Shown: one piece after another, positions 7,243-13,476 of the stretch | Position numbering within the stretch: position 1 is the first letter of the stretch | How the letters are laid out: every line of letters begins with the position of its first letter | Source: Sulfurimonadaceae bacterium | Lineage (GTDB): Bacteria > Campylobacterota > Campylobacteria > Campylobacterales > Sulfurimonadaceae | Assembly: GCA_041548245.1 (NCBI GenBank) | Contig: JBFESZ010000026.1 | Coordinates: 1 to 23,331 of the forward strand | Direction: 5' to 3' | Length of the DNA: 23,331 nt | Notes under the pieces: model-generated | Databases searched by the model: none | Seen by the model: the letters and a program-made list of their open reading frames with translations, nothing else | Told to the model about the DNA's origin: nothing | Made by a program: the position numbers and the translations under genes

Positions 7243-10221
7243 TTATTTTCTAGCTGAGAGTTGCTCTTCATAATCTAACTCTAGACCTGTAGAAGTCATC
7301 CTGAATCCTCTGACCAATATCTTTCCACTGTGGATATCATTGTGATGGTCCCGACATAAGGGAATAAGATTATGCTTATGGTCTTGATGGAAATGACCGA
7401 TAAAACCTGCCCGATTTGCCATGGACTGATGTGAGATATGGTGCACATCTTCAGCAATGTTTCCACAGATGACACACTTAGTCACATACAGGTCTTTATT
7501 GTACTTGCTTCTTTTTTTCTTCTTGACCAAAAGTTCAAGCTCATCATAGTCATTGGCCAAGCGTTTTCTGATACTGTTTGCTGCGTCAAGAAACTCCTGA
7601 TCCATATGTAAAGACTTGGCGAACTCCAGACCATAAATACTGCTTCCACTTCCACTTTGGAGTGTTCTGTTGTACAGAAGTTTATCCAAGGCTTCATCAT
7701 AAGCAACTTCCAAATGCAGATTAACGACATTCTTAAGTTTTACCACCTCTTCCATTGTCGAAAGCTGATGAAGATGGGTGGCGAACAGAAATACCGAGCG
7801 TAGTTTAGCCAGTTTCATAATCGCTGACGCGACGATAGCGACACCGGAGAGTGTTTCAGTGCCATGCGAGATCTCATCACCCAATACAAGGCTTTTCGTA
7901 CCTGCACGATTAAAGATGTTCTTCATCTCCAACATCTCCACGGCGAAAGTTGAAAGTCCCTTGGCCAGGTTGTCTTTGGAGACGATACGTGTAAAGATGG
8001 ACTCAAAGAGTGAGAATTTCATAGCCGAAGCCGGGACAAAGAAACCGGCCTGTGCCATCAACACAGCAAGCCCTATACTCTTCATCAACGAGGACTTTCC
8101 GCTTGAATTGATCCCGTAGAGTAAAACACCATGTATCTGATGACCGTCATGCACCATAGAGTCCAGCATAATCGTATCGGGATAAGGAAGATCCATGTAC
8201 TCCCTGTTACCCATGACAATATCATTAGGGACATAGATACCCTGATGCTCCTGCACTTCAATCAGCGGATGTCTCAACTCCAGGATCTGTAAAAAATTTT
8301 CATCCTCATCTGTCTTTACTACCATCGGTCTGGCATAATTGTATAGCTCTGCCGTCTTAGCGGTAGAGACAGCCACATCAATATCGGCGACATAATGGAT
8401 CATTCTCTCAAACAGAAGTGTATATCTGCGTTCTAACTGATGCTGTTTCTCCACAAACTTCTCTTTGGCCAGCGCTACGATCTTTGAGCGGTTACGCATG
8501 ATCTTATCGGAAAGTGAATCAATCAAATCTGAGGTAATCTTCACATTGTTCGTCAATTTTTTTACACTGAACTCTTTAAAAGAAAAATATTCGCCTTCAA
8601 TATCGACACCTGTTCCAAAAAACTCTGTTTCAATCATCGCGAAACGGTTTTTGGAAAGGTTGATAAAGTAGCCCTCTTTATCCAGCTGACCCAGACTGAC
8701 CAGACGGTTCTCACCCTTGTTGGTGACATTACTGAGCATCTCTTCGATCGTATCCATGATGATATAGATCGTCTGAAACATCTTGGAGTTCTCATCACTT
8801 AACTCGTCAATATGTGGATCAATACCCCGCATAAAGAAGTTCTCTTCTACTGTCTGTATGGTATATTTACGCGTCACCTCAAGATTATAGGTCTTTTCTA
8901 TCTCTTTGATAAAAGCCGAGACCTCATTTTCAGAAAAAGGCGTTTTTGAAAGTTTGTGCTTTTTGACATAAGCCATAAGCTCCTGAATCCCCAAAAGTGA
9001 ATCATAAATAAAGTTCATCTCAAAAGGGTGAAGTCTTCCCAGGTTGGTTCGGCGGGAAAGACGTTCAAGGTCATAGATATTGCGTAGGCTCTCTTCAAGT
9101 AATTTGGTATGCGACATCACCTTTTCTGCCAAGTTATAACGTCTACTCAGCTCTTCTTCTTCCATAATTGGATTAAGCAGACGCTCTTTAAGCAGACGTT
9201 TTCCAATAGCTGTCACCGACTTATCGATCAAACGCAACAGTGTCATCTCGTCTTTGTCCTTGGATATTACACCAAGCTGTTCAAAAGCAGAGTTTCCAAG
9301 ATACATATAACGGCGATTGTCTATCAATTGCGGCCGTGAAAGTTTTTGAATAATATGATAATCATGTTCAATGACAAAATGTACCAGCACAGCTAAAGAC
9401 TCAGAGATCATCGGTGTACGTTCAAGATCCAAATGCTCTATAGGAGAAAGTAGTGATTGAATCTGATACACCCGTTTGAAAAGTTCATTTTGATATTCGA
9501 TCTTTGGACGATGATTGTTTACACTGTAAGTATAATGTTCATCAATTTCAAGGTAACGCAGGACCTGTTTTTGATCATCTACACCTTCTAAAAAGCTCAG
9601 GACGACCTCTGATGTTTTATAGACATTTAAAAGGTTGAATATCTCATCAAGGGCATAGTTCTGATCTTCGCTTGTACCGTGAGCTTCATACAAAAAGGTC
9701 TTTCCCGTTGTCACGTCTATAGCCGAATAGCCGATGGAGTAGATATCCTTATGCTTGTCCACCAAAAGTGAAACTATGTAGTTATCCTCATTATCAGTCG
9801 TATAGTCAAAATTCGTGCCCGGTGAGATAATCTGTGCGACATAACGGGAGACCTTCGGCGGTTCACCACGTTGTCTGATATAGATGATAGTATATTTTTT
9901 TTCTTGGATAAGACGGTTGAGATAACGCTCAAACGAGATGGTAGGCACCCCTGCTAGTAGCGGATTCTTAACAGAGTTTTCTGCAATGGTCTTGTTTTTC
10001 TTGGTCAGCTGAATATTAAGCAGCTCAGCCATCTCTTTGGCCTTGCCGATTTGGAGCTCATCATTATTGACCTCATAGACCTCAACAAAGGTCCCGATCT
10101 CCATGAAAACAACAGTATTGCTCCCATACTTTTGTTCAAAATGCTCCTGTAATTTAAAATAGACCTCAGTTAAAAGTAACTTCTTATCGTTTAAAAGAGC
10201 ATTGACATCATCAGCAAGCAT
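7243..10221 (-). CDS. mutS: MutS-family ATPase with C-terminal HNH endonuclease domain (MutS7-type)
   Basis: Mismatch-binding GTFVE (F-x-E, 10081-10095), LLAGVP, Walker A GINSSGKS (8092-8115), GLSTFAVEM, Walker [20 protein letters not shown]-terminal [26 protein letters not shown] (7330-7476). Confidence 0.92.
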
Positions 10222-10825: not shown

Positions 10826-12004
10826 CTATACAATCATATGTCCAACAAACTTACTCATGTTGTCCAAGATCTTTCCGCCTCGCCTAAACCCCAGACCACA
10901 AGCCTCATAAGCGAAGAAAACACCTGCCTGATAATGGTTTCCAGCCGCGTCTTGAGGAAATTCGACAGCCGCTTGATAGACTGATTTGTAATGTGCATAC
11001 TCACCATCTGTCTGTGCTGCGATAGAGCCATCGGCATTAACAAATTTCGTATTCGCACCTTCACGACCGAAAACCTTCTTCTCTACATAGGCTTTAGCTT
11101 TAAGAGGCTCATATGCAGTCTCCAGAAGATAAGGTGAATCCGGGAAGAGGTCATACAATATCTTCAACATCCCCTTGGACTGGAATAGAAGGGTATAGGC
11201 CGGATTAAGTATGATGGCTGATTGCGATTGTAAGATGTTTTGTAGTGTCAATGCCAGCTCACCTTCTTCAATCGCAATATCTTCCCATGGAAAGAGCTTA
11301 AACCAATATTCATACTCCTGATTCTCTTTATCACATATACTCTCATTGTCAAAAAGCACTTCATGTAAAAAGGTAAAACCTGTTAGAAATCCGGCGTCTT
11401 CAGCCATACGCTTGAGAAGTCTAGTCGTAACTTCTTCTTCATCATTGCCTTCTATAGACGAGAACAGGATACGCCAACCCTCGTACAGTTCTTCAAATCT
11501 TGACGTGTCATCAAAGAGTGTAATTAGACGTTTAAAGTTTTCAGATATAGACTCATAGACTGTATTGAACTGCTTCGCCTCGTCCAGTCCATTGGCTTTC
11601 AACATAGCCCACTGGACAATAGCCGTTTCGAAGAGTCCTGTCGGCGTGTCAGCATTGAATTCTATGAGTTTGATCGGTTTTCCATCAATCCCTCCGGCAA
11701 GATCAAAACGCCCATAAAGGTGCCAATGTACATCATTTTCCCATGATTTTTTAATTGTTTCAACAAGGTTAAATGGAATCCCCAGTTCAAAAAAGAGATC
11801 ATGCTGTATGACATATTCAGCCGCTTCGACATACATGTCATAGAGTTCATTGACCGCAGTATAATAGGCCTCCGCTTCATCTGTATTGATCTGAACAAGC
11901 TCATCAGCGACATATTGCGTTCCATCTGTATCCGTATGCCAGGAGAAGCCTATTTCATCCAAGGTACTGTTATCAATGGGTTTAACTTTTAATGGCGTTA
12001 TCAT
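10826..12004 (-). CDS. Glutathionylspermidine synthase family ATP-grasp protein (YgiC/YjfC-like, synthetase domain only)
   Basis: LYGRFDL, KLIEFNADTPT, FKLFPWE, QSKGML, GREGANT, GLGFR motifs; no N-terminal CHAP amidase. Start placed at ATG 12004, overlapping the upstream stop (ATGA). Confidence 0.92.
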   Translation of the reverse strand: MITPLKVKPIDNSTLDEIGFSWHTDTDGTQYVADELVQINTDEAEAYYTAVNELYDMYVEAAEYVIQHDLFFELGIPFNLVETIKKSWENDVHWHLYGRFDLAGGIDGKPIKLIEFNADTPTGLFETAIVQWAMLKANGLDEAKQFNTVYESISENFKRLITLFDDTSRFEELYEGWRILFSSIEGNDEEEVTTRLLKRMAEDAGFLTGFTFLHEVLFDNESICDKENQEYEYWFKLFPWEDIAIEEGELALTLQNILQSQSAIILNPAYTLLFQSKGMLKILYDLFPDSPYLLETAYEPLKAKAYVEKKVFGREGANTKFVNADGSIAAQTDGEYAHYKSVYQAAVEFPQDAAGNHYQAGVFFAYEACGLGFRRGGKILDNMSKFVGHMIV

Positions 12005-12573
12005 CCACCCCATCCTGAAGTTTTACTACCGATGCTTGATGTTGTTCCACTTGATGTGGATTTTTTAGAGAAAAAGCTTTTTTTCGAACTGCCAGCCGCT
12101 GAACGCTTTTGTGCATGATACGCCGATTTATTAACACTGTTGGCATTTTGAGAAAAGTTCTTATTCCCCATCAGCTGATTAGCGATCATATTTCCCATAA
12201 GAGAACCTGCCGCGACGGCCAAAATCGTACCTGCCAATCCCATCCCTTCTGAACCATGGGCTTGAGTCGTTTCAGATGTTCCTTCTTGGACCTTTTTATA
12301 CTCTTGTTCAGCTAAGGCACGCATTTCATCTTCACTCATCAATCTTTCAATGGTATTACCATTCTCGTCTTTCTCACGGATGATGGCACGAGATGGTCCA
12401 TCTGTCGGTACCTCCTCGATAACATTATATTTTCCCATTGCATTTTGTTCAATAATTAAAAAACGGTTCTTAGGCTCCTGCTGTTCCTGTACACATCCGC
12501 TTAATGCACTCATGACTACGACACTCATACTGCCAAGGCCTATCGCCGAAACAGTTGTTTTAAATTTGCTCAC
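12001..12573 (-). CDS. UPF0323-family lipoprotein (Cj0371/HP0232-like)
   Basis: Probable GTG start at 12573 with AAGGA SD; lipobox ALSG-C; Gly-rich hydrophobic segment GMGLAGTILAVAAGSLMGNMIA; Ser/Lys-rich tail ending GWGG; directly upstream of the Gsp-synthase-like gene as in Campylobacter/Helicobacter. Confidence 0.85.
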   Translation of the reverse strand: MSKFKTTVSAIGLGSMSVVVMSALSGCVQEQQEPKNRFLIIEQNAMGKYNVIEEVPTDGPSRAIIREKDENGNTIERLMSEDEMRALAEQEYKKVQEGTSETTQAHGSEGMGLAGTILAVAAGSLMGNMIANQLMGNKNFSQNANSVNKSAYHAQKRSAAGSSKKSFFSKKSTSSGTTSSIGSKTSGWGG

Positions 12574-13012
12574 TGATCTTTTCCTTCTCAAATGTAATTA
12601 TTTTTTCTAGTTCATCATCATAAAACCAAACCGTATCTCTACCTGTATATATGATCGTACCAATGTAGATATGCGCTCCGGATCTTATAACCTTCTCTTT
12701 CTCAGCCAAAAGCATACTGCCGACTTCTTTTCCAATCGACGGTATCTGTGTCAGATTGACGATAATCAAACAGAGGGTAAAAATAATTGCTGCTATCTTT
12801 GTGTCTTTGAAAAACACGAACAGATAGCCAAAACATATGACACCTAAAGAGTAGAGTATATAACTTTGGTGATCTGCAAACAGCACATTATAATAGACAT
12901 CTATATTCTGGGCCTTTATATAGTTTAAAAAAATTCCCAGTATAAAAAAGAAATCCAGGAAAAAAGTAAAGAACATCCCTGCCAACAATGCAGAACCAAG
13001 TTTATAACCCAT
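12560..13012 (-). CDS. Hypothetical membrane protein (about 3 TM segments plus a soluble C-terminal part)
   Basis: Three hydrophobic stretches; overlaps both neighbours (TAATG coupling at 13012). Confidence 0.8.
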   Translation of the reverse strand: MGYKLGSALLAGMFFTFFLDFFFILGIFLNYIKAQNIDVYYNVLFADHQSYILYSLGVICFGYLFVFFKDTKIAAIIFTLCLIIVNLTQIPSIGKEVGSMLLAEKEKVIRSGAHIYIGTIIYTGRDTVWFYDDELEKIITFEKEKISEQI

Positions 13013-13476
13013 TATCTCAACCTTTTAATTTTTGAGTGACAAAGACGATAAATTGTAGAAGCCTGCCCTTCATAAAGTCCCTTGCCATCTTCAACGATTA
13101 TATCACTGTTTGCAAAAGCGAATCTTTGATCATATGCTAAAGAGCGTTCGTTCGCAGAAGTTGAGTAGAACCACTTATAAGGCTTGACAAACTTGGCATG
13201 ACGTGGCTCTTTCACAACTCTTACAGCTTGATTGTTAGGATAAACAAATGTCGTCTTTTTAGAACGTCTTACCCTCGTTGCATGTGCCTTTGGGATACGT
13301 GATATGGTTTTGAGAACTTTGAATGAAGCCGCCACGCGGACAAAAGGCTTGTCGACGGGACGTTCTTTGAGGTGGGCGAGACGCACACCGTCTTGAGACA
13401 GGAAACCGACTGTTGTATCGGTCTGAACAAGCCAAAGCTTATTCTGCAAGATAGTCTTGTAAAGGAACTGGCTCAT
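13012..13476 (-). CDS. Short Sua5/YciO/YrdC/YwlC (TsaC-like) family protein
   Basis: QTDTTVGF (degenerate PTDTVYG), K.RP.DKP, AVRV, STSAN and ASTI motifs; only 154 aa. Confidence 0.8.

Follow-up and report, generated by a model that had tools for sequence, protein, structure and literature searches.

The gene pair examined here raises the question of what a glutathionylspermidine (Gsp) synthetase-like ATP-grasp ligase acts upon when it is encoded directly after a lipoprotein ending in Gly-Gly. The window, that is the whole 23,331-nucleotide stretch of Sulfurimonadaceae DNA that was analysed, carries both genes on the minus strand, lipoprotein gene first and ligase gene downstream, and both ORFs were confirmed (Table 1). 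In the initial annotation it was proposed that the real substrate of the enzyme is the C-terminal Gly of its partner, ligated to a polyamine, lysine side chain or amino-lipid in a ubiquitin-like manner. We consider it probable that the ligase spends ATP on attaching spermidine to the free carboxylate at the C-terminus of the neighbouring lipoprotein, once a motif in the lipoprotein tail has docked on the enzyme. The overlap of the two genes was read correctly at the outset, as the ligase ATG in the 392-aa database gene call shares bases with the lipoprotein TGA (ATGA at 12004); a longer ligase start at 12013, given by the ORF finder, is probably not in use. E. coli too has members of the ligase family, next to tolC and a paralogue of PspA; this E. 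coli-type neighbourhood (tolC, DUF350, PspA) was absent at the locus, and a profile search of the source genome gave no match for DUF350 or PspA. Beside the pair neither a conserved alternative candidate-substrate gene nor a recognisable E1-like ORF was found.

Table 1. Positions of the genes and predicted features of the pair within the window
Feature	Position	Strand	Remarks
UPF0323/Cj0371-type lipoprotein gene, candidate substrate	12001..12573	-	190 aa; GTG start at 12573, TGA at 12001
Signal peptide II and lipobox LSGC	12493..12573	-	Cys27 at 12495-12493
Folded domain, residues 36-97	12283..12468	-	four-stranded sheet and helix, pLDDT about 90
Second Gly-rich hydrophobic segment, residues 110-136	12166..12246	-	broken helix in model
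Docking motif SKKSFFS, residues 163-169	12067..12087	-	co-fold; counterpart of distant RGGFG
Terminal SGWGG, residues 186-190, candidate acyl donor	12004..12018	-	end conservation
YgiC/YjfC-like single-domain ATP-grasp ligase gene	10826..12004	-	392 aa, ATG start at 12004; profile and fold matches
Catalytic RFD (R99, D101) and EFNAD (E115, N117)	11648..11710	-	GspS R316/D318 and E330/N332
Predicted docking edge, ligase residues 213-219	11348..11368	-	co-fold
GREG loop, G313-G316	11057..11068	-	GspS R538/G540 equivalents

The ligase ORF was matched by PF03738 over residues 16-394 of 395 (E 1.6e-119, 399.9 bits vs 29.3), and no amidase domain was found by profile search. Its model (pLDDT 92) gave the YjfC/YgiC structures 7uk6, 7uk8 and 7uka as top Foldseek matches (TM 0.85-0.79), and the enzyme is nearer to YjfC/YgiC (E 4e-32, TM 0.85) than to GspSA (E 2e-16). 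The reading of an amidase-less Gsp-synthase-family enzyme was upheld, with RFD (R99-D101), EFNAD (E115-D119) and GREG all intact. In alignment R99, D101, E115, N117, T122 and E189 correspond to GspS R316, D318, E330, N332, S337 and E391, and K277, K309, R314, G316 and R374 to K498, K533, R538, G540 and R598. We take R316, D318, E330, N332, K498, K533, R538, G540 and R598 to have catalytic, Mg/ATP and spermidine-binding roles. Spermidine-binding or catalytic roles have been described for S337 and E391 (PMC6272389). As judged from these alignments, the catalytic, Mg/ATP and spermidine-binding residues are intact in the ligase, and by domain, fold and residues it appears to be a YgiC/YjfC-type single-domain peptide-spermidine ligase. 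Among 18 homologues, the only one lacking a tailed neighbour has lost its catalytic residues. The earlier description of YgiC as an ATPase is outdated, since YgiC has been reported to be a peptide-spermidine ligase (PMC11762307); YjfC bears the same annotation, and YgiC has no Gsp-forming activity.

The family name of PF03738 and the catalytic residues held in common with GspS might suggest a plain Gsp synthetase working on imported glutathione. We regard this as most improbable, as the enzyme is closer to YjfC/YgiC than to GspSA, YgiC itself being reported without Gsp activity, and as two GspS positions that we take to belong to the glutathione site are changed (A443 to P239, T446 to D242). 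The search for gshA and gshB that had been proposed bears this out: PF04262-type GshA gave no match in the source genome (96% complete), and GshB (TIGR01380) was over the cut-off in 0/151 Campylobacterota genomes, with two matches below it. A PF02955 match in the source genome was rejected as a glutathione synthetase, being RimK-like by sequence recognition. A Gsp synthetase would also leave the strict coupling to the partner, described below, unexplained.

Carboxyspermidine decarboxylase was found in 151/151 Campylobacterota genomes, spermidine synthesis genes thus being present throughout, and the carboxyspermidine route was found in the source genome; PF01564 matches there were too weak and partial (best E 3.5e-7) to be accepted as a spermidine synthase. 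It might still be argued that the tail is the acyl donor and that the amine is something other than free spermidine, such as an amino-lipid, lysine, homospermidine or a second tail in a cross-link. Three acidic pocket residues of GspS are altered in the ligase (D387 to I184, D389 to N187, D610 to K385), and in phage Motura the pair adjoins a homospermidine synthase. In trypanothione synthetase, glutathione is joined through both polyamine ends. Against another amine, YgiC and YjfC carry comparable changes at D389 and D610 (T/T and R/R) yet both have peptide-spermidine ligase as their annotation, E391, the key residue for spermidine, is retained as E189, and every genome surveyed has spermidine synthesis genes. 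We therefore think another amine unlikely; by analogy with YgiC/YjfC spermidine is the most likely of the amines first listed, lysine and amino-lipid being less likely.

The lipoprotein appears to be of the UPF0323 (Cj0371) type, having both a lipobox, as first noted, and a place directly upstream of a Gsp-like ligase. It matched NF003146 over residues 3-182 (E 1.4e-39) with 135.7 bits vs a curated cut-off of 194, a cut-off missed by all 7 genomes of the host's taxonomic family, and is 36% identical to Campylobacter jejuni Cj0371. Cys27 is invariant across 102 aligned partner sequences. Pfam gave no match for the lipoprotein, DUF1190 was absent among the 25 families listed, out of 29, for the 102 partner members, and the mature protein is free of Cys, the Cys pairs of the YgiB/YjfM type being missing. 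From its sequence the lipoprotein would work like the DUF1190 partners but is no member of that family. Residues 27-109 are acidic (10 K/R, 18 D/E), the folded domain, for which a fold search against the PDB gave no match at E 0.001, presumably lies in the periplasm, and the second Gly-rich hydrophobic segment was found where it had been placed. The best 19-residue Kyte-Doolittle mean (KD19) of this segment is 1.64 (partner family median 1.61), and it would be a marginal transmembrane or glycine-zipper segment.

The remaining residues, 136-190, form the Ser/Lys/Gly tail ending in SKTSGWGG that had been recognised from the sequence, with 9 K/R, zero D/E and 40% S+G, and are disordered in the structure model. 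The Gly-Gly end exceeds chance: of the 1758 ORFs in the source genome with 150 aa or more, only two end in GG, the lipoprotein and an ORF that we take to be MoaA-like, and only nine end in GG or GS. In the 101 complete Campylobacterota pairs (out of 110 loci) the last residue was G or S in all 101, against a background of 66% G/S at positions -4 to -13, G stood next to last in 93, and 86 had an aromatic residue at -3. A quick tree implies at least 8 changes of the last residue between G and S (12 under parsimony), with no third residue appearing. Conservation of a terminal Gly or GG, which had been set as a check, does not hold in the strict form, as C. jejuni ends in FGS, a Helicobacter-like group in IS, NS or NA, other tails in WS, and GG was present in 64/101 Campylobacterota pairs. 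Among 125 distant tails, a set that retains 4 wrong automatic partner picks (for two of which the annotated partner ends in GG), the ends were GG 43, GS 25, SS 13, GE 12, HA 3 and others, with G, S or A last in 109; the bias of this last residue exceeds that of the leash, itself 71% G/S/A, to a moderate degree only. No ligase column covaried convincingly with the last residue of the partner: the top columns for tails ending in GE resemble clade markers, and Met123, a mark of the Helicobacter-like clade, also goes with partners ending in LGG or LGS.

Since the SGWGG codons also overlap the likely Shine-Dalgarno site of the ligase, the Gly-Gly end could be a by-product of a plain low-complexity tail whose Gly codons supply that site. 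Where the gap is 1-6 nt, the penultimate codon is GGA in 45/69 loci, and GGAG lies within the last 12 nt in 40/69, compared with 1/16 where gaps are at least 9 nt. Ligase-unlinked partners, however, end in GG, GS or GA in 13/13 cases, GG is kept where the partner gene follows the ligase gene or lies apart from it (Sulfitobacter, Vibrio, Arthrobacter and three phages), terminal Ser is encoded by both AGY (22) and TCT (12), and GG or GS ends are as rare in the source genome as stated above. Translation signals were rejected as the sole cause of the end, an explanation that we hold to be scarcely credible; a contributing dual use of these codons remains.

The two genes also occur together. The ligase was detected in 137/151 Campylobacterota genomes and the partner in the same 137; the 14 ligase-free genomes lacked the partner in 13 cases, and the weak match in the remaining one is an unrelated acidic protein, so that ligase and partner are jointly absent in 14 genomes and co-occurrence is strict. 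Outside this phylum, an RGGFG-type motif followed by an S/G tail was found in a neighbour of 137/162 distinct distant ligases; partners there were chosen by motif and tail, which replaced a lipobox-first choice that often took unrelated lipoproteins. No partner was detected for the other 25 of the 162, although for 12 of these the upstream flank was 1500 nt or longer. The spacer from motif to end was 7-15 residues in 117/125 distant tails and never below 7, in a search that permitted lengths down to 3, and never under 9 in Campylobacterota (n=97). What these sequences suggest as the rule for partners is that a small residue comes last and that a docking motif precedes it by a fixed distance. 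PF03738-type ligases occur in 123 phage records; a viral scan with the single source ligase gave no match, and the alignment-based scans did.

Co-folding of the tail with the ligase, a check proposed earlier, was positive for docking, with a score of 0.67 vs 0.01 for the best control, run agreement of at least 35% and partner pLDDT of at least 38 (about 40); the co-fold mark was reached by 116/157 solved pairs and 2/215 mismatched pairs. Only the motif SKKSFFS was confidently placed, and no other part of the tail, terminal GG included. Its predicted docking edge also includes ligase I184, F238, E247 and L250; F218, E247 and L250 do not vary among 102 orthologues, and I184 and F238 align with GspS D387 and W442. 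In GspS, D387 is among the residues lining the substrate pockets (PMC6272389). By itself the modelled docking would be equally compatible with a tether or regulator, and the tail could bring the ligase to the membrane or cell pole, or fill its site as a pseudo-substrate, while another peptide, protein or small acid would be spermidinylated. The confinement of the co-fold to the motif agrees with this, as do the variable ends (GE and HA included) and the polar, CheV-binding Cj0371, and we rate it as improbable, though the least so of the readings set against our own. A pure tether needs neither a constrained last residue nor a bounded spacer (none below 7 in 125 tails, none below 9 in 97), and no further conserved candidate-substrate gene accompanies the pair, DUF350 and PspA not being in the source genome.

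The partner C-terminus is the best candidate substrate because of strict co-occurrence, constrained ends even away from the ligase, the tail co-fold and the lack of a glutathione synthetase. What stands of the first proposal is the C-terminus as candidate, on co-occurrence, ends and co-fold, and what falls is an invariant Gly. The ubiquitin-like mode was not sustained either: no E1, thioester or beta-grasp fold (no match at E 0.001) was found, the tail is disordered, GG is not invariant, and ATP-grasp acyl-phosphate chemistry would apply. In the mechanism that we propose, the KKSFF motif of the tail would dock on the ligase, a short leash of Ser and Gly would bring the small residues at the end of the protein into the active site, and the ligase, using ATP, would link spermidine to the C-terminal carboxylate. 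In GspS a C-terminal carboxylate is phosphorylated and spermidine attacks the acyl-phosphate (PMC6272389).

Such a reaction would place the tail in the cytoplasm, with the lipid-anchored N-terminus outside and the second hydrophobic segment across the inner membrane. Across partners, the residues beyond the segment form a basic stretch (median 8 K/R, 0 D/E), in Cys-rich distant partners every mature Cys precedes the hydrophobic segment, a C-terminal Cj0371-EGFP fusion is fluorescent (PMC4944492), and Cj0371 pulls down cytoplasmic CheV (PMC6104132). A cytoplasmic tail is plausible and fits the charge asymmetry, the KD19 of 1.64 and the Cj0371-EGFP fluorescence. Against simple spanning, the segment is modelled as a broken helix and its hydrophobicity is marginal. 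A transmembrane-like segment is missing (KD19 about 0.5 or less) in partners from Acinetobacter, Deinococcus, Arthrobacter, Sphingomonas and two phages; in the many distant partners that lack one, a lipoprotein tail would not readily meet a cytoplasmic ATP enzyme. Alternatively, the tail might be modified before export. For YgiB an outer-membrane lipoprotein has been predicted, and the protein builds up when Tsp, a periplasmic C-terminal protease, is mutated (PMC13435647). This accumulation, together with very short distant partners of about 70-110 residues past the lipobox and little besides the tail, could also be taken to mean that the tail or a precursor is cleaved and the freed peptide spermidinylated into a diffusible peptide-polyamine. 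We find this very unlikely, given that no conserved protease adjoins the pair in the annotated loci examined, that the Campylobacterota partner retains its folded domain, and that full-length Cj0371 fusions are polar (PMC4944492).

The product of C-terminal spermidine ligation would be a lipoprotein whose already basic tail bears a polycationic cap, which under envelope stress would probably tune how it binds to partner proteins or anionic membrane. With slightly less assurance than for the pair itself, we lean towards the view that at least six bacterial phyla and many large phages cap a lipoprotein C-terminus with spermidine by way of a motif, a leash and a small-residue end, which would solve the substrate of YgiC/YjfC; tail cross-linking, or coupling of the polyamine pool to envelope-stress or chemotaxis proteins, is conceivable. 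If true, this would be a new bacterial post-translational modification, protein C-terminal polyamination, a widespread two-gene way for bacteria and phages to cap a protein end with a polyamine, and a biochemical handle on the unexplained ygiBC/yjfMC and cj0371 mutant phenotypes. The analysis names a specific candidate substrate and recognition motif for YgiC/YjfC-type ligases, and an expected mass shift of +127.15 Da, equal to spermidine minus water.

The families of both genes were known before; what is added here is the evidence on the substrate, the docking motif and the controls. Like the E. coli pairs YgiB-YgiC and YjfM-YjfC, the pair described here has a single-domain PF03738 ligase (TM 0.82-0.85, about 25% identity) encoded directly downstream of a lipoprotein, and in YgiB and YjfM, too, an acidic body and a hydrophobic segment go with a basic tail that has an RGGF/YG motif and terminates in GG. 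They differ in having DUF1190 bodies with Cys pairs, whereas the source partner is UPF0323 with neither; the YgiB and YjfM bodies have no detectable homology to the lipoprotein (E 0.16, 0.025). A 2025 source gives the physiological substrate of YgiC as unknown (PMC11762307). C. jejuni Cj0371 and its downstream Gsp-synthase-family gene are orthologous and in the same order (partner 36%, ligase 62% identical), Cj0371 ending in FGS rather than GG. Cj0371 is a polar negative regulator of chemotaxis that binds CheV, and cj0372 has 0 occurrences in the two papers concerned (PMC4944492, PMC6104132).

GspSA and trypanothione synthetase share the fold, the catalytic residues and an acyl-phosphate attacked by spermidine (PMC6272389). 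GspSA differs by its amidase domain, its unaltered glutathione pocket and glutathione as acyl donor, the proposed donor here being a protein tail; against the bifunctional GspSA profile NF007801 the ligase scored 104 bits vs 882, the synthetase part alone matching. ATP-grasp enzymes of the RimK/tubulin-tyrosine ligase type also extend the protein C-terminus of a dedicated substrate, but add amino acids, not a polyamine, to soluble, cytoplasmic substrates; they form another ATP-grasp clade, and the source genome has a separate RimK-like gene. Conjugation of SUMO or ubiquitin with spermidine likewise gives a spermidine amide on a C-terminal Gly (PMC12270671), but is eukaryotic and uses E1 and E2, whereas the pair described here has one ATP-grasp enzyme and a disordered tail.

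The contig (C26 in a 2.16 Mb genome that is 96% complete) carries a UPF0323/Cj0371-type lipoprotein, here called the partner, whose stop shares an ATGA with the start of a YgiC/YjfC-like ATP-grasp ligase. Several of the closest relatives of the ligase are labeled Sulfurimonadaceae (Campylobacterota). The lipobox, second hydrophobic segment and basic Ser/Gly tail with an SGWGG end, as well as the RFD, EFNAD and GREG motifs of the ligase, are all present as the initial annotation described them. The locus is real and conserved, and both parts come from known families. Of the 1758 ORFs in this genome that are 150 aa or longer, just 2 end in GG and 7 in GS.

Features of the lipoprotein-ligase region (positions in the window)
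Feature	Position	Strand	Length
Lipoprotein (partner) gene	12573-12001	minus	190 aa
Second hydrophobic segment of lipoprotein	12246-12166	minus	
Ligase gene	12004-10826	minus	392 aa
MutS	7243-10221	minus	992 aa
Hydrophobic protein	12560-13012	minus	150 aa
Short Sua5/YrdC-like protein	13012-13476	minus	154 aa

The MutS has domains I, III and V and a C-terminal HNH-like domain. The hydrophobic protein, which has no Pfam family, overlaps the lipoprotein start with its 3' end; within 1.5 kb flanks its homologues adjoin the pair at 50 of the 80 close loci vs 0 of 30 wider-phylum loci, and it could be the counterpart of the membrane helper DUF350 elsewhere. The Sua5/YrdC-like protein barely exceeded the Pfam cut-off, and 62 of the 80 close loci have its gene linked to both the pair and carB.

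A PF03738 match spans the ligase end to end, and its score against the bifunctional glutathionylspermidine (Gsp) synthetase-amidase model is far under the cut-off. By sequence and by structure model (pLDDT 92) its nearest relatives are E. coli YjfC (TM 0.85) and YgiC (TM 0.82). In alignment every catalytic position of Gsp synthetase (GspS) that was examined is conserved, among them the equivalents of Glu391 and Ser337, to which an excerpt of PMC6272389 assigns roles in spermidine binding. A gshA/gshB search, suggested by the initial annotation, found no GshA in the window's genome and no GshB reaching the cut-off in any of 151 Campylobacterota genomes; two weaker, full-length glutathione-synthetase-like matches lie at G065:C2:262617-263576 and G071:C1:734924-735859. 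Ordinary Gsp synthesis is exceedingly improbable. In a 2025 review, YgiC is described as lacking Gsp synthetase activity and having peptide-spermidine ligase activity, its physiological substrate being stated as unknown (PMC11762307). In RefSeq, YgiC and YjfC are both now annotated as peptide-spermidine ligases. Triglycine was reportedly the model substrate of Pederick 2023, with spermidine the sole amine accepted. A carboxyspermidine route is found in the host (NspC above cut-off, with a dehydrogenase-like ORF upstream), and NspC is present in 151/151 genomes of the sample; use of another amine, or formation of a cross-link, is distinctly unlikely. The genome has a second ATP-grasp ligase at G000:C7 (L134 1390-2316, minus strand), which we take to be RimK-like. 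On an Azospirillum brasilense plasmid, the divergent homologue at L133 (2369-3520) has had several of its catalytic residues lost and stands without a tailed partner in its vicinity; it is likely a pseudo-enzyme.

The ligase occurs in 137 of the 151 genomes and the partner in the same 137, a count in which kin are not independent and pair losses are spread over several families. Thirteen of the 14 ligase-free genomes have no partner match, and the weak match in the 14th is itself an unrelated acidic protein. Phages also carry the whole pair (L128-L132, L180-L331), with 123 phage records matching the ligase; in Achromobacter phage Motura it directly follows homospermidine synthase, and it is found in Delftia phage PhiW-14, whose DNA is putrescine-modified. 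In two loci (L153 in G056, L154 in G148) two diverged tandem partner paralogues, both keeping the docking motif and ending FGG, precede one ligase.

The 110 Campylobacterota loci gave 101 complete pairs, 9 being left out as truncated, frameshifted or unlinked. Their partners end in GG (64), GS (29), IS (4), AG (2), SS (1) and SG (1); the penultimate residue is Gly in 93, position -3 is aromatic in 86, and the leash between docking motif and end is 66% G/S. On a quick maximum-likelihood ligase tree the last residue changed between Gly and Ser 12 times, at least 8 of them forced by well-supported branches. In 40 further regions, chosen from partner matches in the 151-genome search, 13 partners unlinked from a ligase end in GG (8), GS (4) and GA (1), and the other 29 matches in GG (25), NS (2) and NA (1), plus the unrelated acidic protein already mentioned. 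E. coli YgiB and YjfM, the partners of YgiC and YjfC, both end in GG. From the 100 matches listed, 18 distant loci on plasmids and phages were selected by hand to give a broad spread; their partners end in GG (12), GS (3) and HA (1). Of the remaining two loci, L133 has no partner and the other has a long neighbour with an SS end. In a larger, unselected distant set (viral and metagenome scans plus these 18) an RGGFG-type motif with an S/G-rich tail was found in the neighbour of 137 of 162 distinct ligases, and the 125 distinct tails, 4 wrong picks included, end in GG (43), GS (25), SS (13), GE (12), AS (7), GA (6), SA (4), HA (3) and others. Therefore strict Gly-Gly is not the rule, and of the terminal glycine conservation raised by the initial annotation what stands is a small last residue (G/S in 101/101 Campylobacterota tails); as read from these alignments, the rule is a small last residue, usually with Gly before it. 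A Gly-Gly end arising as a by-product of a Shine-Dalgarno sequence has real weight, since GGAG lies within the last 12 nt in 40 of 69 closely spaced vs 1 of 16 widely spaced loci, but it leaves unlinked and downstream partners unexplained and is highly improbable. Should the 12 Gly-Glu tails (L194, L208, L238, L255, L372, L383, L388, L390-L392, L399, L403) serve as substrates, their ligases may have a different terminal pocket or activate a different carboxylate. A genus group, Helicobacter-like by sequence (g17: L160-L162, L092, L098, L099, L104), has lost the penultimate Gly and ends FNS, FNA or xIS, and the partner tail of L062 is off-pattern beyond the docking motif, probably through an assembly frameshift.

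No tail feature is as constant over lineages as an internal motif that reads KKSFF/KSGFF in Campylobacterota and RGGFG in the other lineages. In 97 of 101 Campylobacterota tails, 9-49 residues (median 16) separate it from the end; among the 125 distant tails the distance is 7-15 residues in 117 and at least 7 in all. A co-fold based on paired alignments combined the ligase with ADP, Mg and the tail (residues 136-190). The predicted complex scored 0.67 vs 0.01 for the best control; at least 35% of contacts agreed between runs, and the pLDDT of the partner was 38 or more. Of 157 solved pairs 116 reach the co-fold mark, as do 2 of 215 mismatched ones, counts that apply here only roughly. The confident predicted interface is exactly motif residues 163-169 on ligase residues 213-219, 184, 238, 247 and 250, of which F218, E247 and L250 are invariant among 102 orthologues. 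Since I184 aligns with GspS Asp387, listed near the substrate pockets in an excerpt of PMC6272389, the predicted docking site would lie on the enzyme's substrate side. The YgiC/YjfC PDB structures among the matches listed are apo or ADP forms, thus a memorised partner complex is unlikely. In this co-folding of ligase and tail, a check suggested by the initial annotation, docking was predicted for the internal motif and not for the terminal GG, which was placed without confidence; in the model the internal aromatic motif, being the stronger, may have taken the binding place of the terminal aromatic residue. That the tail is instead a tether or regulator is unlikely.

The partner matches the UPF0323 model below cut-off, is 36% identical to C. 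jejuni Cj0371 (L085), and had no family in a Pfam search. In its predicted structure, which has no structural match in the PDB, residues 36-97 fold into a small domain, the hydrophobic helix is broken and the tail is disordered. The protein is acidic before the hydrophobic segment and basic after it (median 8 K/R, 0 D/E among 101 orthologues), an asymmetry also seen in YgiB, YjfM and most distant partners, whose cysteines precede the segment. EGFP is non-fluorescent after Sec export. A C-terminal Cj0371-EGFP fusion is described as fluorescing at the cell poles (PMC4944492, in part) and Cj0371 as binding CheV (excerpt of PMC6104132), which hints at a cytoplasmic C-terminus. Against this, the hydrophobic segment is marginal and is missing from several distant partners, YgiB is termed a predicted outer-membrane lipoprotein, and, in a section of PMC13435647, YgiB builds up when the periplasmic protease Tsp is absent. 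Modification of a released peptide is very unlikely. DUF1190 was described, with its operon, as a metal-chelating lipoprotein (Ravi et al., bioRxiv 10.1101/2020.09.24.301986, in part).

On balance we favor a reading in which the ligase caps the lipoprotein C-terminus with spermidine. The tail would dock on the ligase as predicted and the leash would bring in the small C-terminal residue; by the chemistry established for relatives, ATP would make its acyl-phosphate, and spermidine attack would give the capped lipoprotein. The identity of the substrate, the amine and the topology we infer. Among the papers listed on YgiC/YjfC, glutathionylspermidine, YgiB/YjfM, DUF1190, UPF0323, Cj0371/HP0232, spermidinylation, DUF350 contexts, amidoligases and peptide-spermidine substrates, no proposal of the partner tail as substrate was found, and Pederick 2023 and Iyer 2009 might contain it; excerpts of PMC10948618, PMC12506659, PMC12568646, PMC7824862, PMC12632600 and bioRxiv 10.1101/2021.12.13.472529 provide general context only. 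The proposed reaction turns the YgiC substrate question into a directly testable one and, if true, would count as a new variety of protein C-terminus modification by ATP-grasp enzymes. The nearest product analogue of the proposed spermidine-capped protein is SUMO-spermidine, as described in part of PMC12270671.
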